A program made the translations under genes and the position numbers. DNA of 42,277 bases from IMG/VR virus record IMGVR_UViG_3300045988_169545; one strand, written 5' to 3'. Position 1 is the first letter of the stretch. Each line of letters opens with the position of its first letter. Below, piece by piece: positions 3,047 to 42,162 of this stretch. The notes beneath the pieces were generated by a model that did not search any database, had not been told where the DNA came from, and was given only the letters and a program-made list of their open reading frames with translations. The stretch is from a virus.

Positions 3047-4114
3047 TCACGCGGCTGCCAGGTCGGCCCAGAAGGCCGTGATGATGCCGCCGTTGCCGGC
3101 GTAGTCGTCGCCCCACCCGGACGTGTCGGCAAGGTCGCGCATCTTGGCCATGAAGCCCTCGCCCTGGTTGGCCGCCGCGTACTCCACGACTCGCCAGCCT
3201 GTCGAGGCCGGATCGGGCGTGTCGTAGTAGCAGCGTATCGCCGTAATGGGCGAGCCGTCGCCGGCGCAGCCGTACATCAGGTCGCCCGCGTCGTAGCCCG
3301 ACACGGGATCTAGCCAGCCGTTGGCCTGGGTGCGCACCTGGTACCAGCCAGGCATGTCGATGGCGAGCCAGCGCATGGGCTGGCCGTCGCCGGCGTAGGT
3401 GTCGCCGGAGCCGCCCGTGTCGTAGCGGTCTACCATCTCCGGGAGCCAGTAGGCGCCGGAGGGGTCGGAGGAGGAGCGGTAGCGCACCTCCTCGGAGACG
3501 TTGGAGCTGCCGCCCGTGCCCGAGGTTCCGGGGGTCACGACGGAGCCGCTCGCCATATACTCGGCCACGCATCCCTCGAACTGCGCCCACGTGCGCCCGT
3601 AGGCGGCGAAGTAGCCCGTCGGGTCGGTGTGGTCGGTGCCACCCCAGATGCGGCGGCACTCGTCGTGGGACAAGAGCCGGTCTACGCCCCAGCCCCGGCC
3701 CGCCAGGTAGTCGCCGCACCAGCGCACCGCCTCGGCCCACTGCCGGTCGAAATCGACCTGGTTCGTGGAGTGGGCCAGCTCGATGCCCACCGTCTGGTAG
3801 TTGCCGTTGCCGACATGCCAGGCCAGGCGGTCGTCATACATGGTGCGGTACACCGTGCTCCCGTCGAGCTCCATCACGTAGTGGACGGCGTAGTCGGGGT
3901 TGTTGCCCCAGTAGATCACGTGGTTCCACGCGCTCGCGCCGGGGTTGGCCGTCTCGTGGACGACCAGGTACTGGGCGTTGTTGTAGCCGTGGCCCCCGGC
4001 CACGATGTTTTCGCTGCTCTCGTAGGCCATCGCCCGCGCCCCCGGAAGGGCGAGCGAGAGCGCGACGAGGAGCGCGGAGAGCGCCGCGATGGGGCGCCTA
4101 GCCTTCGTCATCAT
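3047..4114 (-). CDS. Endolysin: N-acetylmuramoyl-L-alanine amidase (amidase_2/PGRP fold) with an N-terminal signal peptide, 355 aa.
   Basis: N-terminus MMTKARRPIAALSALLVALSLALPGARA is a signal or signal-arrest-release type leader. YLVVHETANPGAS...GIELAHS... is typical of amidase_2 catalytic domains. It sits in a lysis cassette with a holin. GGGAAGGGGG Shine-Dalgarno sequence. Confidence 0.8.
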   Translation of the reverse strand: MMTKARRPIAALSALLVALSLALPGARAMAYESSENIVAGGHGYNNAQYLVVHETANPGASAWNHVIYWGNNPDYAVHYVMELDGSTVYRTMYDDRLAWHVGNGNYQTVGIELAHSTNQVDFDRQWAEAVRWCGDYLAGRGWGVDRLLSHDECRRIWGGTDHTDPTGYFAAYGRTWAQFEGCVAEYMASGSVVTPGTSGTGGSSNVSEEVRYRSSSDPSGAYWLPEMVDRYDTGGSGDTYAGDGQPMRWLAIDMPGWYQVRTQANGWLDPVSGYDAGDLMYGCAGDGSPITAIRCYYDTPDPASTGWRVVEYAAANQGEGFMAKMRDLADTSGWGDDYAGNGGIITAFWADLAAA

Positions 4115-4349
4115 CCGCGCCCCCCTTCCCCGCCTTGATCTGGCTCGCGCCGATGACCACGCCGACGAACGTCCCGACGGCGTTGATCGTGGTCACGACC
4201 GCCTGGGCCGTCGCCGCGTCCGCGCCCCACGCCCCGGCGCACGTGCCGACGAGCGTGGCGAGCGCGGGTAGTGCGATGAGGCCGGCCCACTTGAGCACGT
4301 CGTAGGCGCGGGACGGGATGAGCCATCCCGCGCCGTCTCTCTCTTCCAT
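4098..4349 (-). CDS. Holin, 83 aa, two transmembrane helices.
   Basis: ATG at 4349 preceded by an AGGAGAGAAT Shine-Dalgarno sequence. Two hydrophobic segments (WAGLIALPALATLVGTCAGAW; AVVTTINAVGTFVGVVIGA) and a charged C-terminus. It overlaps the endolysin start. Confidence 0.7.
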   Translation of the reverse strand: MEERDGAGWLIPSRAYDVLKWAGLIALPALATLVGTCAGAWGADAATAQAVVTTINAVGTFVGVVIGASQIKAGKGGADDDEG

Positions 4350-4366
4350 GATTCTCTCCTTTACAT

Positions 4367-4672
4367 CTAGCCAACTCCGATGCTCGCGAGCGCCCAGCCC
4401 ACGGCGGCCGCCACGAGCGCCCACAGCGCCCTGTCGGCCATGTTCTCCCAGCGCTTCGCGGGCCTCGCCTCCAGGACGGCGAGCCTCTCGTTCATGGCGT
4501 CTATCCGCTGCTGGTTCTGCCGCTCTATCTCCTTGAGGGCGGCGAGCGTCTCGTTGAGCGCGGATAGCTGCTCCTGGTGCTCGTCTATCTTCTTGCTATG
4601 CAAGTCAAGTCGCCTGTCGTGCGCGCCTATGGCGCGAACGTGGGCCGAGTGCTGGGCGCAACTCCCTTCCAT
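4367..4672 (-). CDS. XhlA-like lysis-associated protein (coiled coil plus C-terminal transmembrane helix), 101 aa.
   Basis: Coiled-coil heptads (LSALNETLAALKEIERQNQQRIDAMNERLAVLEA) followed by a C-terminal hydrophobic helix (LWALVAAAVGWALASIGVG). AAGGGAGGTGA Shine-Dalgarno sequence before the ATG at 4672. Confidence 0.55.
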   Translation of the reverse strand: MEGSCAQHSAHVRAIGAHDRRLDLHSKKIDEHQEQLSALNETLAALKEIERQNQQRIDAMNERLAVLEARPAKRWENMADRALWALVAAAVGWALASIGVG

Positions 4673-4757
4673 CGCATCACCTCCCTTCTATGCACAAGTC
4701 AAGTCTGCGTGCGCACCTGGCTATCGGGTAGCGCCCGATCCCGTTGCCTTAGTCGCC

Positions 4758-4811
4758 CAGAATCCCACGCTCGCCTACGCTCGATCTCCCGCGAAAACGC
4801 GTGGGATTCTG
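4758..4811. promoter_or_regulatory. 13-bp perfect inverted repeat (CAGAATCCCACGC ... 28 bp ... GCGTGGGATTCTG) 20 nt upstream of the recombinase start. Each arm carries GCGTGGGATTC, the left-arm motif of the inversion site in the expressed gene.
   Basis: Read directly from the sequence. The 11-mer GCGTGGGATTC is shared with site 6977..6999 (reverse strand). Confidence 0.5.
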
Positions 4812-4831
4812 CGAGAGGAAAGAGGTCAGAA

Positions 4832-5743
4832 ATGAAGCTGGGAACCTACTACGAGGAGACCTACGTGCTGCGCTACCTGTCTCTGTCGCCGACCACGGTG
4901 CAGGGGTACGAGAGCAGCTACCACCTCCACGTCGAGCCGCAGTGGGCCGATTGGGAGATGCACGAAATCAGGGTCAAGCACATCAACACGTGGCTCGCGA
5001 CCGCCTTTATGGACAACCCCGGAGGGGCGGAAAAGGCGTACAAGGTGCTGCGCCAGATACTCCATGCTGCGATGGGCGACGAGGAGTACCCGGACGATGT
5101 TGTAGATCCCACCACCCGCGGCGTCCGCAAGCCCAAGATGCCATGGCACGAGGACGCCCCACGGCTAAGCCCGAAGGAGGTCAAGCAGCTCCTCATCGGC
5201 GTCGTGGGCTGGGAGTACGAGCCCGTGGTGATCTGCGGCGTGTGGCTCGGGCTGCGCCGCAGCGAGGCGTGCGGGCTGCAATGGAGGGATATCGACCTGC
5301 GCACGGGCCTGGTGCGCATCAGGCGCGGCGTGCACTACGTCAAGGGCAAGGTTGTCGTAACCAAGACCAAGACGCACCGCAGCCAGCGCCCGCACATGCT
5401 CCCCAGGACGGCCATAGAGCGCCTGCGCGCGATAAAGCGCGAGCGCAGGGCCAAGCCCACCGACTGGATCATGGGCGACGAGCTGGGCGTTGACGTCCAC
5501 CCAGACCGCTATGCCCGTAGGTTCCGGGCCTTCTGCAATCGCAACGACTTACCCTACGTGGCGCCGAAGTACTTCCGCCACACGTTTCGCAGCAACGCCC
5601 GGAAGGCGGACATACCAGAGCAGGATATCCAGAAGATGCTTGGGCACAGGGAGTTAGAAACATCCTACATCTACATGGAGCTTGATGAGGACGTGCTGCG
5701 CGTAGACCAGCGCGCCCACGAGCGGCTGATCCTGCGTGCGTAG
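4832..5743 (+). CDS. Short tyrosine site-specific recombinase (XerC/Rci-like, 303 aa) with no arm-binding N-domain. Putative DNA invertase for the adjacent cassette array.
   Basis: Catalytic signature residues are present: ...LGLRRSE (Arg), KYFRHTFRS (His-x-x-Arg), LGHRELETSYIYM (His, Tyr nucleophile). A GAGAGGAAAGAGG Shine-Dalgarno sequence precedes the ATG. Its stop TAG (5741..5743) is part of the first conserved recombination site. Confidence 0.9.
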   Translation: MKLGTYYEETYVLRYLSLSPTTVQGYESSYHLHVEPQWADWEMHEIRVKHINTWLATAFMDNPGGAEKAYKVLRQILHAAMGDEEYPDDVVDPTTRGVRKPKMPWHEDAPRLSPKEVKQLLIGVVGWEYEPVVICGVWLGLRRSEACGLQWRDIDLRTGLVRIRRGVHYVKGKVVVTKTKTHRSQRPHMLPRTAIERLRAIKRERRAKPTDWIMGDELGVDVHPDRYARRFRAFCNRNDLPYVAPKYFRHTFRSNARKADIPEQDIQKMLGHRELETSYIYMELDEDVLRVDQRAHERLILRA

Positions 5744-5761
5744 CATTCGGTATCCCCCGTC
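5738..5761 (+). repeat. Putative inversion site 1 (GCGTAGCATTCGGTATCCCCCGTC). The TAG is the recombinase stop codon.
   Basis: One of a family of five related sites. 18/19 identity to the inverted site over ATTCGGTA(T/G)CCCCCGTC. Confidence 0.6.
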
Positions 5762-6046
5762 ATGATCATCGATGACGGCAAAGTCTCGGTGCAGCAGGCG
5801 GGATGTCACATCATAGCTTGTTGCAGGGCTAATGTTGGTGATATCCCTCCATGGGGCACCATACACCTAAAGGATGGACTGCCTAAGCCGGCGAAAGCAG
5901 TTTCAGCAGCGGTGACAGTCCAGGATGCTTCAGCTGTTTGTGCAATTGCCACGATCGGCAGTGACGGAACGCTTCTGCTTGATAATAAATCTAGCGCATC
6001 TGGCGCCGGTTGGGTGTTTTTCGAGATCTCGTATTTCACAACGTAG
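5744..6046 (+). other. Silent alternative C-terminal cassette A (100 codons). It is in frame with its site and is bounded by a TAG stop inside site 2.
   Basis: Open reading frame from the site core to TAG 6044..6046. Same frame (position mod 3 = 2) as the recombinase and cassettes B and C. Confidence 0.55.
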
Positions 6047-6064
6047 CATTCGGTAGCCCACGCA
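6041..6064 (+). repeat. Putative inversion site 2 (ACGTAGCATTCGGTAGCCCACGCA).
   Basis: Identical 17-mer TAGCATTCGGTAGCCCA to site 3. Located exactly at the cassette A/B boundary. Confidence 0.65.
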
Positions 6065-6382
6065 AGTGGGGTGATCACCCCGGTGTTTAACCTCGAGACC
6101 AGCTGGCAACTCACGCGGCGTGCCGGATGGGCGTACCTAGACCTCCGCGCGTACACTCTGCAGTCGGCGTTTGAGACATGGAGCACGCCCATCGCCAGGC
6201 TGCCCGAGGGGTTTCGGCCTGCGAAAAACATACGCTCGATGTGCATGATCGAGGCCCAGTATTGGGAGCAGGTGGCACCGGGATATGTGACCATATTCCC
6301 CAATGGGGATGTGGAGCTAGATTACCGCGTCAACTTCGCGCCGTACACATGCGACGTCTCGGCGGTGTTTCCCCTCGCGTAG
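6047..6382 (+). other. Silent alternative C-terminal cassette B (111 codons).
   Basis: In-frame ORF from site 2 to TAG 6380..6382, with the stop embedded in site 3. Confidence 0.55.
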
Positions 6383-6400
6383 CATTCGGTAGCCCAGGCC
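6377..6400 (+). repeat. Putative inversion site 3 (GCGTAGCATTCGGTAGCCCAGGCC).
   Basis: See site 2. Located at the cassette B/C boundary. Confidence 0.65.
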
Positions 6401-6637
6401 GTCGTGAAGGCCGCGAAGGTCGTGCTTGACAACTTCCGCACGTCCTCGACGGTTGTTGTGACGGTGCCCGTCGCGTGGCCGGTCGACGTCTCGCGCGTGG
6501 TCGCCGTCGTACCGTCGTATGTGTGCCAAGAGTACTCGGACCGCATCGTCGTATCCGACTGGGGTGCCGACGGCGTGGATGTGCGCGCGGGCGTCGACCA
6601 GAACGTCTCCATGACGCTGCATGTCCTCTACGTGTGA
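6383..6637 (+). other. Silent alternative C-terminal cassette C (84 codons).
   Basis: In-frame ORF from site 3 to TGA 6635..6637, with the stop embedded in the degenerate site 4. Confidence 0.5.
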
Positions 6638-6650
6638 TTCGGTAGCGTGG
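6632..6650 (+). repeat. Degenerate site 4 (GTGTGATTCGGTAGCGTGG).
   Basis: Core ATTCGGTAGC is retained, but the left arm has diverged (TGA in place of TAG CAT). Confidence 0.4.
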
Positions 6651-6674
6651 TGGCCGTGTACTAGCCGTAGCCCG

Positions 6675-7103
6675 CTACGACAGCTTGCCAATCCAGACAA
6701 GCTGGTAGTCGAAGTGGAGGCCGATTGATGACTCTGCGTCGGGCCATGCAACGATCTCTACGGAATCGTAGGTTGTCTTGTTGATATAGGCGTCCTTAGC
6801 TGACCAACCTCCCGTGCGCCTGGCAATCCCGGCATAAAGACACGACTCGACCCGTCTCGGCAATTCGATGGTCTTTATATTTTCGCCCGCTTTGAGCAGC
6901 GTAAACGAGTCCCAAAAAGTGAAGATTGCGCAGTTGTCGGGCAGTTGCAGCATGCTCCAGTGGCCCCCTAGATCGACGGGGGCTACCGAATCCCACGCGT
7001 CGTTCGCGGCGGCGATTCCGTCCTCCATATGGTTGAGCCTGTCGGCCGTCAGGGTGGTTCCGCCAGACACCAAGTCACGCCAGATTTGCTTAAGGTAACT
7101 CAT
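6675..7103 (-). CDS. Tail-tip / putative receptor-binding protein (142 aa) with a 37-aa constant N-terminus and an invertible variable C-terminal cassette (currently cassette D).
   Basis: Last gene of the tail-fibre module, with its ATG overlapping the upstream stop (ATGA). It contains inverted site 5 at the junction between the N-terminal part and the remaining 105 aa. Confidence 0.65.
   Translation of the reverse strand: MSYLKQIWRDLVSGGTTLTADRLNHMEDGIAAANDAWDSVAPVDLGGHWSMLQLPDNCAIFTFWDSFTLLKAGENIKTIELPRRVESCLYAGIARRTGGWSAKDAYINKTTYDSVEIVAWPDAESSIGLHFDYQLVWIGKLS
6977..6999 (-). repeat. Inversion site 5 inside the expressed tail gene, in inverted orientation to sites 1-4 (reverse strand reads GCGTGGGATTCGGTAGCCCCCGT).
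   Basis: The reverse complement of 6977..6999 shares the 12-bp core ATTCGGTAGCCC with sites 2 and 3 and 18/19 bp with site 1. It lies at codons ...A-W-D-S-V-A-P-V..., 37 codons into the gene. Confidence 0.65.
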
Positions 7104-7240
7104 GCTATCTCCTCCTTGATCGCCGCGCGCTCCTCGTCGGTGAGCTTGGTGTAGGACGCCAGCACGGCGTCCACCTCCTCGCCCCTCGCGACCCGGATGG
7201 CCGCGGCCTTAGCGATGATGGTCAGCTGGATCTTCGTCAT
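7100..7240 (-). CDS. Small XkdX-like tail-fibre-associated protein, 46 aa (MTKIQLTIIAKAAAIRVARGEEVDAVLASYTKLTDEERAAIKEEIA).
   Basis: ATG at 7240 and stop overlapping the downstream ATG (ATGA). Its size, position next to the fibre genes and the ...LT.EE...I.. pattern resemble XkdX-family proteins. Confidence 0.4.
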   Translation of the reverse strand: MTKIQLTIIAKAAAIRVARGEEVDAVLASYTKLTDEERAAIKEEIA

Positions 7241-7244
7241 TGCC

Positions 7245-7706
7245 TCACGCCCCAATCACGTCGGCGAGCACGAGCACGATCTCGCTGGTGGTCTCCTCGA
7301 CCGAGCCGAGCCGCGCGGGCGCGCCCGCCATGAACTCCTCGCGCTCGGCTGCCTTGCGCGCCTCCTCGGCCGCACGCTCCTCGGCCTCCTTGCGCGCCTG
7401 CTCCTGTGCGAGCCTCTCGGCCTCCATGGCGGCCAGCTCGTCGGAGGTGTAGGGCGTGTAGACCATGCAGTCCTCGTACTCGTCCCATGCGGGGACGGGA
7501 GGGCTGTACTCCTGCACCACGACCGTTTGCAGGTCCTTGCCCCCGTTGGGGTAGACCTTGATCGGGTTGTCGTAGTCGATCTCCTCGATGCGCTCCCTCT
7601 CCGGCACCGCGTCGTGGTGTGCGACGAGCCTTTTCGCCGGCTCCAAGCGGCCGAGCGCCGGATCGGGGTTGTCGACCTCGTTCCATTCGGCATCGTACGT
7701 TCTCAT
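7245..7706 (-). CDS. Hypothetical tail-module protein, 153 aa, with an Ala/Glu/Arg-rich coiled-coil segment.
   Basis: ATG at 7706 with a GGAGAGGG Shine-Dalgarno sequence. The first 230 aa of the computed 383-aa ORF are Arg/Gly-rich alternate-frame noise. Confidence 0.5.
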   Translation of the reverse strand: MRTYDAEWNEVDNPDPALGRLEPAKRLVAHHDAVPERERIEEIDYDNPIKVYPNGGKDLQTVVVQEYSPPVPAWDEYEDCMVYTPYTSDELAAMEAERLAQEQARKEAEERAAEEARKAAEREEFMAGAPARLGSVEETTSEIVLVLADVIGA

Positions 7707-8431
7707 CAGCTCACCCTCTCCCATATCTTGTAGCCCATGAACAAATACGTGTCCGTCCGCTTCGTCCAGCTCCCGCCGAACTTCTCCGCGGGGGACTCGC
7801 CGCCCTTCGTGATGTAGATGCTGTCCTTCGGCCGGTAGTCGGTGGCGGCGCCCGTCGGGGGCACCTGCCACGCCCCGTCGCTTCTCAAGTAGCGGTTGGC
7901 CGTTCCCGCGGCAGGGGCCGGCACCAGCCCGGCCTTGCCGGCGGCCGACGCGGTGGCCCCAGTCATGGCCGAGTAGGTGGTGTTCTTGTCCGTTTCCCAT
8001 GCTCCCCACGCCGTCGCCGACGTCCCGACGCGCCAGTAGACCTTGCCGGCGACGAGGCCGATCTGCTTCGGGTAGCCCCCGGAAGAGTCCGTCCAGGGAA
8101 CCACCGTGGTGACGGCCGCATACGTCTCGCCCGAGAGCCCGACCACGCTCGCCTGCTTGAACTCGATGACGGAGCGTTTCGGATGGTTCTTCATATACCA
8201 CTCGGGCGTGTTGTTCGCGCTTCGGGTGTCGGGCACCGAGACGGCGTTGGCGAGCGTCGCCGCACCGCCCGCGCTGGCAGACCCGGCGTAGCTGTGGGTG
8301 TGGGACGAAGGCGCGAAGGTCGACGGCTTGCCCGTCACCTCGCCCCATGCGTGGGCGTGGGACTTCGCCGCGAACACGTCCTTGCACCTCGCCCACAGCC
8401 TCGCGACGCCGGAGTTGTCCAGGAACCCCAT
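7706..8431 (-). CDS. Tail fibre protein paralog 1, 241 aa.
   Basis: HxH/SHTHS-type tail-fibre repeat motifs. The N-terminus MGFLDNSGVARLWARCKD and the C-terminus ...SPAEKFGGSWTKRTDTYLFMGYKIWERVS are shared with the gene at 9418..10059. Confidence 0.75.
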   Translation of the reverse strand: MGFLDNSGVARLWARCKDVFAAKSHAHAWGEVTGKPSTFAPSSHTHSYAGSASAGGAATLANAVSVPDTRSANNTPEWYMKNHPKRSVIEFKQASVVGLSGETYAAVTTVVPWTDSSGGYPKQIGLVAGKVYWRVGTSATAWGAWETDKNTTYSAMTGATASAAGKAGLVPAPAAGTANRYLRSDGAWQVPPTGAATDYRPKDSIYITKGGESPAEKFGGSWTKRTDTYLFMGYKIWERVS

Positions 8432-9417: not shown

Positions 9418-10059
9418 CTACCCCACCCTCTTCCAAATGCAACAGCCCATGAACAAATACGTGTCCGTCCGCTTCGTCCAGCTCCCGCCGAACTTCTCCG
9501 CGGGGGACACCCCCGGGTCCATGAGCGCCCACTTCCCCACCGGCTCGCCCTCGTAGGCGGCCTCCTCGGAGCCGGACGGCGCGGGGCAGGCCGCCTCTAT
9601 CTCCGCATCCGTCATCCCCTTTACCGCAGCCGTGATAGACGCGTTGGCCGAGCCGTCGAAGGTCGCCGAGCCCGTGACGTCGCCGGAGAGCGACAGCGTG
9701 CGCGCGGTCGCGAGCTTCGAGGCGGCCGCCGCGGTGCCTCCCGTGGCCAGCTTGCCGTCGAGGGCGGCCTTCACGGCCTTGTTCTGCACGGGGTTGGCAG
9801 ACGTTGCCGACAGGGAGGCGTCCACCGTGGTCTTGTTCGCGCCATCGGCGATGCCCTGCAGCTTGGCCTTGTCGGCAGCGCTCATCGCGCCGGGCGAGCT
9901 CGTGGTCGCATCCGGTATGGTGACCTGCGAGAGGATGACCGGGGTGTCGGCCTTGTTCTCAAGCGTGATGGTCGTTCCGCTCACCTTGAGGCGCGCCCCG
10001 AACGTCGCCTTGGCCTTGGCCCAGAGAGCCGCAACGCCTATCTGGTCGAGAAAACTCAT
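9418..10059 (-). CDS. Tail fibre protein paralog 3, 213 aa.
   Basis: N-terminus MSFLDQIGVAALWAKAKA. Its C-terminal 22 aa are near-identical to paralog 1 (the 64-bp DNA repeat 9444..9507 = 7733..7796). Confidence 0.75.
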   Translation of the reverse strand: MSFLDQIGVAALWAKAKATFGARLKVSGTTITLENKADTPVILSQVTIPDATTSSPGAMSAADKAKLQGIADGANKTTVDASLSATSANPVQNKAVKAALDGKLATGGTAAAASKLATARTLSLSGDVTGSATFDGSANASITAAVKGMTDAEIEAACPAPSGSEEAAYEGEPVGKWALMDPGVSPAEKFGGSWTKRTDTYLFMGCCIWKRVG

Positions 10060-12810: not shown

Positions 12811-15800
12811 TATGCCACCCCCTTCGCTCGCTTGAAGTACCTGAACACTGTCTCCATCGCGCGCTCAACCTCCGGCTCACCCGTCACGTTGACGCCATCG
12901 ATGGTGTAGTAGTTATTGACAGCGCGGTCACCGATCCCCGCCATCTGCTCGGCGAGGGTCTTTGCGAACGGGAGCGAGTAGCGCTTGTTGGTGAGCGGCA
13001 CGATGGCCTCGGCGCCGTCCTCGCCCACGATGTCGAGGGGCACGGCGCGCGTTGCGATGGCGCCCGCCCCGTGGAAGCGGTAGCCTCCCTGGGCGTTCAG
13101 GCGGATGCCGCCGGCGGCGTTCCGGGAGCCACCCGTGAAGAACTCGGTGATCGTCTTGGTTATGTTGATGACGCCCTCCCCGACCCAGCTTGCAAGGCCG
13201 TTGCGGTTCCACTCCGCCTTCTGGCCGTTGGCGTAGGCCATGTTCCCGTTGACCGTACCGCTCCCGGTCTGGTCCTCAAGGTCGGAGTAGTTCCATCTGT
13301 CGAGGTGCTGCTGCGCAGCCGGTACCCCGTCCTTGACGAACGCGTTGCCGTACTGGTCTACGAGGCTCGAACCGTTCCACAGGTAAAGGTTGCCCTGCGC
13401 ATCCACAAGGCTCGTGCCGTCGATGGCGGCGGTTCCGTCCTTGTCGACCAGCTCGGAGCCGTTCCATGTGTACAGCTTGCCCTGCGCATCCACCAGGCTC
13501 GCGTGCTCGACGTCGACGTTGCCTTCCTTGTCGACCACCGGCGTGCTGTTGTAGAGGCGCACCATGCCTATGAGGGCGTTGATGTCCCCGCCGCAGCTCT
13601 CCGCCATGGCAGCGAAGTCCTCGCTGCTGATGCGCGCGAGGTCATCTGCCGTGACGCCCGCGTCGGAGAGGTCGGACGAGAGCGTGCGCAAATCAGACCC
13701 CATGCCCTCGACGGCGGCCCTCGCGCCGTCGCCCATGTCATCGAGCGCCGACTTCACGGCGTCGGCCGCAGCTGCGGTGGCCGCCGCGTTCTCGTCCATA
13801 CCCACGCCGATCTCCTTGAGCGCCGACACGACGGACGACCTCGTCCCATCGTACGAGTCGGCGATGCGCAGCAGGTCGGCCTCCGATTTGTTGCCAAGAT
13901 CATCGGTGCTCGCACCGAGATCCCGCAGGTCGTCCTTCAGCTCCGCCAAGGACGTGCCGCTCTCCTTAAGCGCCGACTGGAAGAGCGATGACGTGCTGTT
14001 CCCCCACTGGTCGAGGGCATCGGCCGCCTCGGACGTCGCCTTGGAGAGGTCGCCCATCTCGCTCTCGATCTCCTTAAGGCCGGCCTTCGCCTCGTCGTAC
14101 ATCCCCTGGGAGCTGACCATGTCCTTGTACGACTCCCACGTCCTCGAGTTGTCGTCGAGCCATGCCCTCGCGTCGGATTCGGACGTCCCGTGGTACTCCA
14201 TCTCGTCTTTGAGCGCCTGGTCGTACTCGCTCTTGAATTTCTTCCGGGCTGCGGCGTACGTGTCGGCGGCGTCCTGGTAACCCGCCGACAGGGCGTCATA
14301 GCTTGAGGAGAGCTGGTTCATCTTGATTTCGTTCTTCTTCGCCTCGACAAGGTCGTTGATGGAGTCCTTGAGGTTCATGGTGGCGCCGTTGGCGTCCTCG
14401 TACGCACCTCGCGCAGCATCGGCTGCCGTGAGCGTGAGGCCGAACTGGTCGTTGACGAGCTTCAGCGCCCATTCCAGGCGCCCTTGAGCGTCAGCTGACA
14501 GGTCGGTCTTGCCCGTGTAGGAGTCGATGATGCCCTGCGCGGTGTTCAGCTGGGCGATCTGCGCCTCCGCCTGCTCGTTCTCCTCGTTGATCCTGTCGAC
14601 GTTCTTGGCCATCGACTCGGCCAGCTCGTCGACGCTCATCGCGGTCGATCCCGCCTTCTCGCCGACGTTGGAAAGCCTCCCCGCGTAGTCGTCGAGCGAC
14701 GTCGCCCTCGACACGGCGTCCGAGAGACCCGTCGTCGCCTTCGTCAGGTTGTCGCTCTTCCTCTTGGCGTCGAGGTAGGCCGACACGGCGACGCCCAGCA
14801 CGGCGGACACGGCGGTCACGCCGAGCGACACCGGCGAAAACGACGTGCCCAGCAGCCTGTTCGCCCCATCGAGGAGCGACGACGCCTTGCGGGCCTCCTT
14901 CGCCTTCGACGCGAAGCCCGCGAGGCCGGTACCGGCGACCTTGAAGGCCGCGAACGACGCGGCCGCCGTCAGGACCTGCGGGGCTATGCCCTTGACGGAC
15001 CCGTAGAACGACTCCACCGCGGGCATTGCCTTCGACACCCCGCTGTTCACCGCGCCGAAGAACTCGTTTATCCCGCCCTTGGCATCGTCGAACGCGCCCG
15101 ATATGTTCTCGCGCCCTATTGCCTCGAGCGTGCCGGCGAGGCCCTTCGTGACGGCGTTGCCCATGTTCGCGGCCGCCGTCTGCACGCCCCCTGCGGCGGT
15201 CTCCGCCTGCTCGCGGAAGCTCGCGAAGCCCTCGCCGCCTTGCGTGTCGAGGCGGATGATGGCGTCGAGCAGGTCGTCCATGGAGATAGTCGGATCGTTG
15301 CCCTTGCCGCCGCCGAGCGCAGCATAGAGGTCGTTCGCGCTCGCGGTGGGGCCGAGCATGCTCTTCGCGAGCTGGTCCATCTGCCCCGGCGCCGCCGTCA
15401 CGAGGCTGCGCCAGTCCTGCATCTCGGGCTTGCCCTTGGAGAGGATCTGACGGAACTGCTCCATGGCGGCGTTGACGAGCTGCTGGCTCGACCCGGACGC
15501 GATGAGCATGTCGTTGAGCGCGAGGCCCGCGTCGGTCGCCCTCGGCAGGTCGCGCGTGATGGCCACGAGGCCGGAGACCGTCCCCGTCATCGTGTCGAGC
15601 GTGGTTGGGAGGTTCTGCAGCCGGTCGCTCATCTTGGCGATCGACGCCTCGGAGTCCTTCGCGCTGTACCCGAGCGACTGCATCACCTTGGGGTAGTTGT
15701 TGAGCGTGTCGAAGCGGCTGACCGCCGCGCCGACATGGCTCGCGATGGCGTCCATGGCCTTGGCCGTGACGGCCGAGAAGGCGCCTATGACGGCGCCTGA

Positions 15801-40617: not shown

Positions 40618-42162
40618 ATGTATGATAGCATGCCCGCCGAGTGGTTGTGTTGCGCCTACTTGCGAAAATCACGCGAGGACGAGGAGCGTGAGAAGCAGGG
40701 TAGGTACAAGACGCTCGAACGTCATAAGGCTATCCTTGAAAGCCTATCGTCTGACAACGGCCATAAGATCGCGCAATGGTATCCCGAGATCGTAAGCGGT
40801 GAGACCATCGAGGGCCGCCCCGAAGTAAAGAAGCTGCTCGCTGACCTTGCGTCTGGAAAATGGGATGCCGTGTACGTGGTGGAGGCATCACGCCTTGGAC
40901 GTGGAGGCGGAAGCGATCAAGAGAAGATCGTGAACGCTTTTCGGTACACGAACACATGGCTCGTGACCGAGGAGAAGGTTTACGACCCGTCATCCAAAGC
41001 CGATATGCGCCAGCTCAAAAACGACCTGCGCAGCTCGGAAGACGAATTGGACAGCATAACCACCCGCCTCACCCGCGGCAAGTATCGCTCGGCACAGGAA
41101 GGCAGATGGCAGGCCACCGGGCGCACGCCTTACGGGTGGCGCGCCGTGCGCATCGCGGGCCTCTGGCAGCTAAGGCCCGACGAGAACCACTGTCACATGC
41201 TGCGCATATACGACCTCTTGGAGAGCGGTCTTACCCCATGGGACGTGGCGAACATCTACAACGCAGAAGGCATCCCGACGCCAAGAGGAGGCGATCACTG
41301 GACCGCGGCCATCGTGCGAGCCATCGCGCTCAACCCCGCCAACTGCGGGTACGTTGTGTTCGGCAAACACAAGACCATGCGCATTTTTGACCCGGTGACT
41401 TTCGAGGCGAAGAAGGTACGTGTAAAGAACGACAAACCAGTCATGGTGAAGGGCTTGCACTACGGCACGGGAGGCATCAGCGAGGAGCGCTTCGAGCGCA
41501 TCACCGGGCACCTTGTCGGTTCAGCCCACCTGCGCAAGGGCTTGGAACTCAAAAACCCCCTGGCCCGTCTGCTGAAATGCGGCAAGTGCGGCTATGCGAT
41601 GAACCACCACCGCATGAGCTCGGGCAAAAGCTACGGGTACTTTTACCAACACCCGGCAAAAAGGAACATGACGCGCGCGTGCGACGGATGCCGCGGTGCG
41701 AGGGATGACCTGGTTATGGACACGTTGGTGGCATCCCTCCGCAGCCTGTGCAACGACATAGAGCTGCGCATCAAGGCCGACAATAGGGCGAGCGAGCACG
41801 AGGCCCATATCGAGGCCCTGCGAAAGGAGCTGGAGAAGGTGCGCGCCGCCAGAAGCCGCGCCATGGAAGCCTACGAGGCAGGCGCCTACACCATCGCCGA
41901 GCTCAAGGCCCGTAAAGACGAGGCGGAGAAGCGCATGGAGAGTATCGAGCGTGCGATCAAGGACGCCAAACCGCCGAAGTACACGCCGGAGCTGGTGGTG
42001 TCGATAAACAAGTGCATCGACATGTTGCTTGACGATACCGTATCCGTGCAGGTCAAGAACGATTTCCTGAAGTCGGTCATAGGGAGGATCGATTATTACA
42101 ACGATACTCCCCCGTTCGTGCACGACAACAAGGTACACCTAGAGATTTTTCTTCGCCAATAA
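40618..42162 (+). CDS. Large serine recombinase (phage integrase), 514 aa.
   Basis: N-terminal resolvase catalytic domain with the nucleophile in AYLRKSRED. Recombinase domain. Zinc ribbon CGKCGYAMNHH...CDGC. C-terminal coiled coil. Adjacent to the terminal repeat and putative attP. Confidence 0.9.
   Translation: MYDSMPAEWLCCAYLRKSREDEEREKQGRYKTLERHKAILESLSSDNGHKIAQWYPEIVSGETIEGRPEVKKLLADLASGKWDAVYVVEASRLGRGGGSDQEKIVNAFRYTNTWLVTEEKVYDPSSKADMRQLKNDLRSSEDELDSITTRLTRGKYRSAQEGRWQATGRTPYGWRAVRIAGLWQLRPDENHCHMLRIYDLLESGLTPWDVANIYNAEGIPTPRGGDHWTAAIVRAIALNPANCGYVVFGKHKTMRIFDPVTFEAKKVRVKNDKPVMVKGLHYGTGGISEERFERITGHLVGSAHLRKGLELKNPLARLLKCGKCGYAMNHHRMSSGKSYGYFYQHPAKRNMTRACDGCRGARDDLVMDTLVASLRSLCNDIELRIKADNRASEHEAHIEALRKELEKVRAARSRAMEAYEAGAYTIAELKARKDEAEKRMESIERAIKDAKPPKYTPELVVSINKCIDMLLDDTVSVQVKNDFLKSVIGRIDYYNDTPPFVHDNKVHLEIFLRQ

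Follow-up and report, generated by a model that had tools for sequence, protein, structure and literature searches.

A conserved inverted pair of putative recombinase half-sites upstream of the invertase gene in a Rin-type phage shufflon, and its possible role as an autoregulatory operator

Why should the gene for a phage DNA invertase be preceded by two copies of one arm of the site at which the enzyme is predicted to recombine DNA? The question is raised by a prophage sequence of 42,277 nucleotides, IMG/VR virus record IMGVR_UViG_3300045988_169545 (this whole stretch is referred to here as the window), in which rin, the gene for a 303-amino-acid tyrosine recombinase (4832-5743, plus strand), adjoins an array of alternative tail-gene cassettes. 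Directly upstream of rin lie two 13-nt segments, CAGAATCCCACGC at 4758-4770 and GCGTGGGATTCTG at 4799-4811, which form a perfect inverted repeat around a 28-nt spacer (tcgccTACGCTcgatctcccgcgaaaac, 4771-4798, plus strand). The repeat ends 20 nt (4812-4831) before the ATG at 4832 and spans roughly -74 to -21 relative to it. A first-pass annotation, made from the letters of the window alone, had described this repeat, and its coordinates and sequences proved exact when 4500-5100 was read again; the same annotation offered two explanations, a site for autoregulation by the recombinase and an additional recombination site. We consider that the repeat is probably an operator at which Rin binds around the rin promoter and represses its own synthesis, with a probability of about 0.6 on the sequence comparisons described here.

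The first part of the answer lies in the relationship of the arms to the inversion site of the expressed tail gene. In the whole window the 11-mer GCGTGGGATTC is found without mismatch at exactly three places, 4760-4770 (minus strand), 4799-4809 (plus strand) and 6988-6998 (minus strand). The third of these is part of the master inversion site in the expressed tail gene, designated S5, with which the right arm of the repeat is identical over 11 nt. The earlier description of an 11-mer common to both arms and to the left arm of this inversion site is therefore correct and can be refined, as the 11-mer is made up of an 8-nt arm, GCGTGGGA, and the first 3 nt (TTC) of a 7-bp crossover spacer. The right arm of the repeat has the consensus arm GCGTGGGA plus TTC in the “left-arm” orientation, and the left arm contains a conserved half-site core, AATCCCACGC (4761-4770), in the “right-arm” orientation (TCCCACGC).

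Taken alone the repeat is only marginally unusual and is weak evidence of anything. It is the sole perfect inverted repeat in the window with arms of at least 13 nt and a spacer of 3-60 nt, while first-order Markov simulations give 0.11 such repeats per window, with one present in 7% of the simulated windows and expected in approximately 7-10% of windows of this size and composition. This frequency is what can be said for the view that a chance palindrome happens to coincide with a chance match to S5. Set against it are the three exact copies of the 11-mer and the total of five matches to GCGTGGGATTC within one mismatch, where 1.27 are expected and none of 100 shuffled sequences reached five. 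The one-mismatch copies at 14170 and 17241 are at chance level, as are further copies of the 8-mer arm at 8355, 17506 and 23330. In our view the decisive support comes from comparative data, in addition to the link to the inversion site: an inverted repeat occurs in the same place in 33 representative loci with arms that co-vary, which effectively refutes coincidence and leaves it with almost no credibility.

For this comparison, relatives were gathered using the recombinase rather than the motif as the probe, giving 94 loci from genomes, viral contigs and metagenomes, plus Bifidobacterium phage PMBT6. Described phages contributed little: a blastn search of 4300-7300 against 50,697 phage records gave no match, and tblastn against phage records returned only three, of which two were records of Bifidobacterium phage PMBT6 and one an uncultured siphovirus. 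Wherever the Rin homologue has 31-100% identity and the upstream sequence is long enough, the element is present, except in loci L029, L056 and L037; in L056 no half-site pair was seen, and in L037 the start codon could not be placed. Ordinary integrases, with at most 28% identity to Rin, do not have it. The 33 representatives that carry the element range from 100% down to 33% in Rin identity and include Bifidobacterium phage PMBT6. They share the pattern rAAA-[core]-N36/37-[core']-TTTy, in which the distance from core to core is 36-37 nt in 31 of the 33 representatives and 35 and 38 nt in the other two, while the right core lies approximately 23-26 nt before the start codon in most representatives and 27-35 nt before it in four. 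The repeat is thus kept upstream of homologous recombinase genes with a fixed spacing and a near-fixed distance to the start codon, and it is present in homologues that keep the cassette sites, in which its absence had been proposed as grounds for dismissing it.

The way in which the element varies is as informative as its presence. In close relatives the 10-nt cores are invariant and the outer bases of the arms vary (locus L004, for example, has CAAAATCCC...), whereas the spacer differs at many positions and is always 28 nt, so that its sequence is free and its length fixed. Across an alignment of 23 lineages 91% of arm positions are complementary, and 10 of the 13 positions have changed on both sides; none of 500 shuffles reached the observed covariation score, and no slid register approached it. 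Relatives of low guanine plus cytosine content (low-GC) read AAAAAAGACCAGAC...GTCTGGTCTTTTTT, with runs of A and T flanking the arms.

To decide what kind of site the arms represent it is necessary to know what a complete crossover site looks like. The crossover sites of the window were aligned with those of ten further lineages, and all follow a common plan of 23 bp, in which two 8-nt arms, left and right, enclose a 7-bp spacer (the parts are separated here by slashes). In the window the plan is GCGTGGGA/TTCGGTA/GCCCxxxx, with sites S1-S4 in direct orientation (plus strand) and S5 inverted (minus strand). S1 (GCGTAGCA/TTCGGTA/TCCCCCGT, 5738-5760) is a rearrangement junction relative to two relatives of the window, L003 and L001. 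S2 is ACGTAGCA/TTCGGTA/GCCCACGC (6041-6063), S3 (GCGTAGCA/TTCGGTA/GCCCAGGC, 6377-6399) is an inversion end-point and S4 (ACGTGTGA/TTCGGTA/GCGTGGTG, 6630-6652) has a deviant right arm. The master site S5 (GCGTGGGA/TTCGGTA/GCCCCCGT, 6976-6998) lies in the constant 5' part of the expressed gene and is the only site in the window to have the consensus left arm.

Within each lineage the crossover spacer and the right arm are conserved, and only the master site has a left arm (xxGGGA) that repeats the right arm well in inverted orientation. The master sites read ccGGGA/TTACAAG/TCCCAGA in the L083 group, ctGGGA/ATCCCTA/TCACAGA in L085 and ccGGGA/TTCCGTA/TCCCAGA in the Eggerthella lenta type, and the same asymmetry of the master site is found in L002, L008, L009, L083, L027, L085, L089, L093, L091, L049 and L054. 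The left arms of the cassette sites are weaker and are GCGTAGCA- or CTAGCC-like (GTAGCA/CTAGCC). If two weak sites cannot synapse, the asymmetry of the arms alone would limit the system to inversions between the master site and a cassette site, preventing deletions. The right arm of S4, GCGTGGTG, is not of the GCCC type and resembles a direct copy of the arm rather than an inverted one; as it is unchanged in L001, L002 and L003, a sequencing error can be excluded.

Compared with this plan, each arm of the repeat upstream of rin amounts to one consensus arm and 3 nt of crossover spacer. The arms face outward (TCCCACGC...28 nt...GCGTGGGA), with their crossover-spacer sides pointing away from each other. 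The sequence 7 bp beyond the right arm, AGAGGAAA, belongs to the ribosome-binding site (RBS) and matches a partner arm at 0 of 8 positions; the RBS region of rin (GAGAGGAAAGAGG, 4813-4825, plus strand), which is contained in the 20 nt before the ATG, fills the place that the partner would need. Beyond the left arm the corresponding sequence, CTTAGTCG, matches at 1 of 8 positions. The mean match across 23 lineages is 1.6/8 and the maximum 3/8, while the left arms of the window cassettes score 6/8 by the same comparison, as read from the arm sequences. Since there is no partner arm across a 7-bp spacer, the two arms of the repeat would appear to be isolated half-sites and not crossover sites.

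This bears directly on the second explanation in the first-pass annotation, in which Rin would invert the 28-nt spacer, or recombine the arms with S1-S5, and so place the rin promoter under inversion control. The idea is a natural one, given that the arms are inverted relative to each other and that the 11 nt common to an arm and the master site include the first 3 nt of the crossover spacer. However, outward-facing arms without partners share no crossover spacer, and the expected products are missing. In all 13 assemblies that have this arm type (four distinct spacer sequences) the 28-nt spacer keeps one orientation and one length, the asymmetric flanks of the repeat are kept in 33/33 representatives, and neither an inverted spacer nor a junction between an arm and a cassette was found among the related loci for which the region upstream of rin was recovered. 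The true shufflon does vary: the cassette region is rearranged between assemblies in which Rin is identical or closely related to that of the window, as seen from the window and L003 or L001. We therefore rejected the extra recombination site, which is very improbable, and of the two original proposals it is autoregulation that is retained, being in keeping with an element that is conserved down to 33% Rin identity with fixed spacing and co-varying arms.

If the arms are half-sites for Rin, then their sequence might be expected to follow the specificity of the recombinase, and the core of the repeat does change from lineage to lineage in step with the right arm of the crossover site. The repeat core is TCAC in L085, where the crossover right arm is also TCAC, and ACCC in PMBT6, where the right arm is ACCC; in L020 and L086 a GACC core accompanies a mixture of right arms (GCCC, GACC and GGCC), and the other lineages combine a TCCC core with TCCC or GCCC right arms. 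In L016 a blind search for 9-mer families groups the repeat arms with the crossover sites through a shared AAGTCCCAG, which suggests that this lineage independently repeats the match between arm and site seen in the window with a different sequence. A permutation test of similarity to the crossover arms of the same lineage versus those of other lineages gave p=0.0005 using the best arm and p=0.012 using the consensus. Where the two arms of a repeat disagree, chiefly at the fifth arm base, they do so at positions that are also variable among crossover arms. On these comparisons the repeat is very probably a conserved functional element that is tied to the specificity of Rin.

The next question is what such an element would do, and its position offers some guidance. 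rin is divergent from its upstream neighbor, with 159 nt between the two start codons; in most low-GC relatives, in which spurious open reading frames are rare, the distance is about 116-132 nt. On the upstream side the similarity of the window to the Gordonibacter pamelaeae locus L001 and to L002 ends at 4752/4753, only 5-6 nt from the left arm, beyond which the sequences are unrelated. Because homology starts at this point, any cis signals for rin expression that are shared with L001 and L002 must lie within the repeat, and the repeat can be seen as the left edge of a module of rin and shufflon that is exchanged between prophages. L001 is itself a mosaic, in which the first 60 nt or so of rin, as far as it was read there, are identical to the window and the whole protein is 77% identical. 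From the short divergent intergenic region and this homology boundary we infer that the rin promoter is bracketed by the half-sites, within which TACGCT (4776-4781) is a candidate −10 element of the actinobacterial TANNNT type.

In the operator that we favor, Rin would accumulate until one monomer binds to each arm, possibly with contact between the two. The cores are 36 nt apart in the window, and the centers of the monomers would be approximately four helical turns apart, covering the −35 region and the start or early transcribed region in an arrangement that is classical for repression, so that bound Rin would exclude or block RNA polymerase at the rin promoter or shortly after it. Negative feedback of this kind would keep the level of the invertase low, resulting in a low and stable rate of switching. 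Rin binding, the position of the promoter and the sign of the regulation are all elements of this model that we infer from sequence.

An inverted repeat in front of a gene can also act as a nucleic acid hairpin, here in the 5' untranslated region of rin or in an antisense late transcript, where it could serve as a stabilizer, a translational occluder, an attenuator, or a bidirectional terminator or insulator between rin and the lysis genes. The predicted stem-loop has a free energy of -29 kcal/mol on the plus strand (z -1.85) and -34 kcal/mol on the minus strand (z -2.66), the compensatory changes preserve the complementarity of the arms, and the arms of the low-GC relatives (AAAAAAGACCAGAC...GTCTGGTCTTTTTT), flanked by runs of A and T, look terminator-like. 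In a few lineages (L085, L083, L019 and PMBT6) the spacer adds to the pairing. The palindrome can also grow. In L007 (397-418/447-468) and L033, where Rin is approximately 76-79% identical to that of the window, it is a perfect palindrome of 22 nt, TTCCTCTCGCAGAATCCCACGC / GCGTGGGATTCTGCGAGAGGAA, the left side of which is the complement of the rin RBS, an extension that would suit a hairpin covering the complement of that site. The window has a degraded form of the extended repeat, with 18-nt arms that are 89% matched.

A hairpin, however, gives no reason for the arms to copy the recombinase-recognition arm or to track its lineage-specific changes, and because the arms do copy it a protein site is favored. 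In nearly all representatives the loop measures 24-31 nt, and the combination of a conserved core-to-core length and a free sequence is atypical for terminators, and in most lineages pairing within the spacer does not exceed chance (mean z -0.47, p=0.058 for 25 lineages; z=0.06 for the window). A fixed spacer length, a free spacer sequence and the lack of added pairing fit the geometry of a protein and a promoter better than that of a hairpin. No intrinsic terminator, defined by a GC-rich stem, a loop of 3-8 nt and a U-run, was identified in 4300-5000 on either strand, the loop being 28 nt and the tail TTCTGCG, and there was no match to Rfam 15 at E<=1 in 4500-5000. Mismatches between the arms include A.C, C.C and A.G on either strand, with no bias toward wobble pairs. 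A promoter in the spacer, where the short divergent region between the genes seems to place it, would mean that the left arm is not even transcribed with rin. A hairpin as the main function is therefore an unlikely reading of the repeat.

Several observations weigh against the operator. Dyad symmetry and compensatory changes are equally expected of an RNA or DNA hairpin. Two monomers that are 41 bp apart cannot form the usual dimer across a spacer, which makes cooperative binding speculative. The candidate −10 element TACGCT recurs in the window group, L085, L091 and L049 at differing offsets, many lineages have no TANNNT, and no promoter consensus of the sigma-70 type was found in 4300-5000. 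The co-variation of the repeat with the crossover arms is modest, because most lineages share TCCCAGA. Finally, L029, a low-GC contig with a full-length Rin homologue of 51% identity, has no half-site pair. Its crossover sites are TTCTGTA/GACC, and at a similar position (3880-4000) it has an AT-rich repeat, ACTTATA-N30-TATAAGT, which may be a replacement operator.

The same half-sites could have a role in recombination without being crossover sites. In this case they would be accessory, architectural sites that join the synapse with S1-S5 and control the choice of partner, or of inversion rather than deletion, in the manner of DR1 and DR2 in the Tn4430 irs, with regulation not being their main role. 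The arms do look like Rin-type half-sites without catalytic partners, and the element invariably lies in cis, separated from S1 by the length of the rin gene. How deletion between direct crossover sites is avoided was left open in the literature on Rin (PMC6109161), and the irs sites of Tn4430 and Tn5401 demonstrate that additional copies of its binding motif can be put to use by a tyrosine recombinase (PMC7157771). Known accessory motifs, however, abut the core site, while 927 bp separate this repeat from S1 and 2.2 kb separate it from the master site, and its distances to the remaining sites vary. The tight and conserved placing of the repeat with respect to the RBS and the start codon of rin points to gene expression, and the asymmetry of the sites already provides an account of inversion-only behavior like that for R64 (PMC11852207). 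We regard a mainly architectural role as quite unlikely. A combined form, in which the half-site pair is a conserved control module that both senses free Rin and joins synapsis, with two monomers held in cis near S1, and in this way enforces inversion and sets the switching frequency, seems to us similarly doubtful. If true, it would answer the question of directionality that was left open when Rin was described (PMC6109161).

An operator made from the recombinase's own motif would not be without precedent. The promoters of tnpR (Tn3 res) and tnpI (Tn5401 irs) are inside the upstream recombinase-binding region and are modulated by the recombinase, and in Tn3 and gamma-delta res the recombinase sites overlap the promoter or promoters of the recombinase's own gene, giving negative feedback (PMC7157771). 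For autoregulation through own motifs the closest functional analogue of the rin element would be the irs of Tn5401 and Tn4430, in which a tyrosine recombinase gene, tnpI, is likewise directly preceded by several copies of its motif. The likeness would be one of function: there DR1 and DR2 are part of the resolution site, directly adjoining its crossover core IR1-IR2, and serve resolution (deletion), whereas here the half-sites are detached from every crossover site and the reaction is inversion. Tn3 and gamma-delta also have copies of the recombinase motif directly upstream of the recombinase gene, but the enzyme is a serine recombinase, the regulatory sites are themselves the recombination site and the function is the resolution of transposon cointegrates. 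The half-site pair may thus resemble the autoregulatory sites of the Tn3 family in action, while differing in build through its detachment from the crossover sites. As self-regulation of a recombinase through its own motif is known from Tn3-family transposons, what is new here is a regulatory feature within a system already known, rather than a system of a new kind.

That known system is the Rin shufflon, described in Bifidobacterium prophages (Bb423phi1 and relatives; Mavrich et al. 2018, PMC6109161) and in Eggerthella lenta clade 1 prophages (PMC8778435). As in those shufflons, a tyrosine invertase without an arm-type domain adjoins an array of short C-terminal cassettes for a putative tail or receptor-binding protein, each cassette is preceded by a short asymmetric repeat (rix) at which inversions occur, and the array lies between the recombinase gene and the constant 5' part of the target gene. 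The window differs in its rix sequence (TTCGGTA/GCCC), its constant N-terminus of approximately 35 amino acids and its target protein of 142 amino acids. The Rin of the window is 33-36% identical, over nearly the full length, to the recombinases of E. lenta-type loci with rix ttccgtat (L089, L093, L091 and others), and its identity to the “integrase” of Bifidobacterium phage PMBT6, encoded beside rix-like TTTCCGTA/ACCC repeats, is 35%; all of these loci carry the upstream inverted repeat. The locus has most of the defining features and is a Rin-type phage shufflon in a prophage. Term searches of PMC6109161 and PMC8778435 found no mention of a half-site pair upstream of rin, and literature searches on invertase autoregulation and gut-phage shufflons turned up nothing equivalent.

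The shufflon of R64 and the IncI plasmids (Rci/sfx) is also a system of multiple inversion by a tyrosine recombinase. Its sfx sites combine a 7-bp spacer with a conserved right arm and a left arm that varies, an asymmetry that is thought to restrict the reaction to inversion, and Rci carries an additional C-terminal domain (PMC11852207). The crossover sites of the window share this layout of a 7-bp spacer and a conserved right arm, but here the tail gene of a prophage is targeted rather than the PilV pilus adhesin of a conjugative plasmid, and the 303-amino-acid Rin leaves no room for an extra C-terminal domain, as judged from its length and the end of the PF00589 match. The locus is not an R64-type shufflon, and we know of no half-site pair upstream of rci. 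In the coliphage switches Gin (Mu), Cin (P1) and Min (p15B), inversion exchanges the C-termini of tail fibers and alters host range (PMC6109161). The rin locus is like these in having a phage-encoded inversion that exchanges tail C-termini, but they use a different enzyme family and mechanism and have no relation to the upstream repeat. Serine invertases of the Gin/Cin/Min type depend on Fis/enhancer.

Rin shufflons allow temperate phages of major Actinobacteria of the human gut (Bifidobacterium, Eggerthella and Gordonibacter) to alter the receptor-binding tip of the tail. The present comparison defines the anatomy of the Rin crossover site, with arms of 8 nt around a spacer of 7 bp and the consensus left arm confined to the master site, and places a pair of apparently isolated half-sites at a fixed position before rin in essentially the whole family. 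This gives a directly testable model of negative feedback on the level of the invertase, which, if true, would offer a way to tune or lock the host range of phages and would supply synthetic biology with a compact invertase module that limits itself.

Rin was identified from PF00589 (E=1.1e-17, residues 140-285), a PHROG integrase match and its homologues, together with a weak match to a SAM-like N-domain. It has core-binding and catalytic domains, lacks an N-terminal arm-binding domain of the lambda-Int type and ends soon after the catalytic domain, which extends to residue 285 of 303. The expressed target gene (6675-7103, minus strand, 142 amino acids) has approximately 35 constant N-terminal residues followed by S5 and the current variable C-terminus. 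PHROG 2012, “minor tail protein”, is matched only by the constant residues 1-41 (E=8.9e-9), neither Pfam nor PHROG gives a match for the variable parts, and the gene is located between tail-fiber-like genes and the lysis cassette. Three silent alternative C-terminal cassettes, at about 5761-6046, 6064-6382 and 6400-6637 on the plus strand (open reading frames 5762..6046, 6071..6382 and 6404..6637), each open after one site and have their stop codon (TAG/TGA) inside the left arm of the following site; the rin stop TAG (5741-5743) is likewise within the left arm of S1. The stops at 5741-5743, 6044-6046, 6380-6382 and 6635-6637 are all placed in this way (GCG-TAG-CA, ACG-TG-TGA), and because they sit within the left arms a short arm sequence doubles as a recombination arm and a translation terminator.

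Rin would invert the DNA between the master site S5 and the cassette sites S1-S4, exchanging the C-terminus of the tail protein. In comparisons between assemblies, on which the evidence for inversion at rix sites is based, the segment 6377-6998 of the window is inverted both in L003, a metagenome contig encoding an identical Rin (100%), and in Gordonibacter pamelaeae L001, its end-points falling at S1/S3/S5, indicating that the shufflon is active in nature. The host is probably Gordonibacter or another member of the Eggerthellaceae. The prophage further encodes a terminase, a tape-measure protein and a large serine integrase. The last of these, a 514-amino-acid recombinase at 40618-42162 with Resolvase, Recombinase and zinc-ribbon domains, is the integrase candidate, and for this reason the sole tyrosine recombinase found, at 4832-5743, is not considered to be the prophage integrase. 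The divergent neighbor of rin is an XhlA-like gene (“hemolysin” PHROG 937; 4367-4672, minus strand), which is the first gene of a lysis cassette that also contains a holin (4098-4424) and an amidase (3047-4114).

Two further repeats were observed in the window. An imperfect direct repeat, TATGCA(C)AAGTCAAGTC...GTGCGC, occurs at about 4596-4627, in the 5' part of the XhlA-like gene, and at about 4688-4717, in the upstream untranslated region of that gene and before the inverted repeat; it may be the site of a second regulator or the scar of a duplication. A 90-nt direct repeat with 90% identity (7712-7801 and 9424-9513) lies at the 3' ends of two minus-strand tail-fiber-like open reading frames, which end at 7706 and 9418, so that the two fiber proteins share a conserved C-terminal segment.

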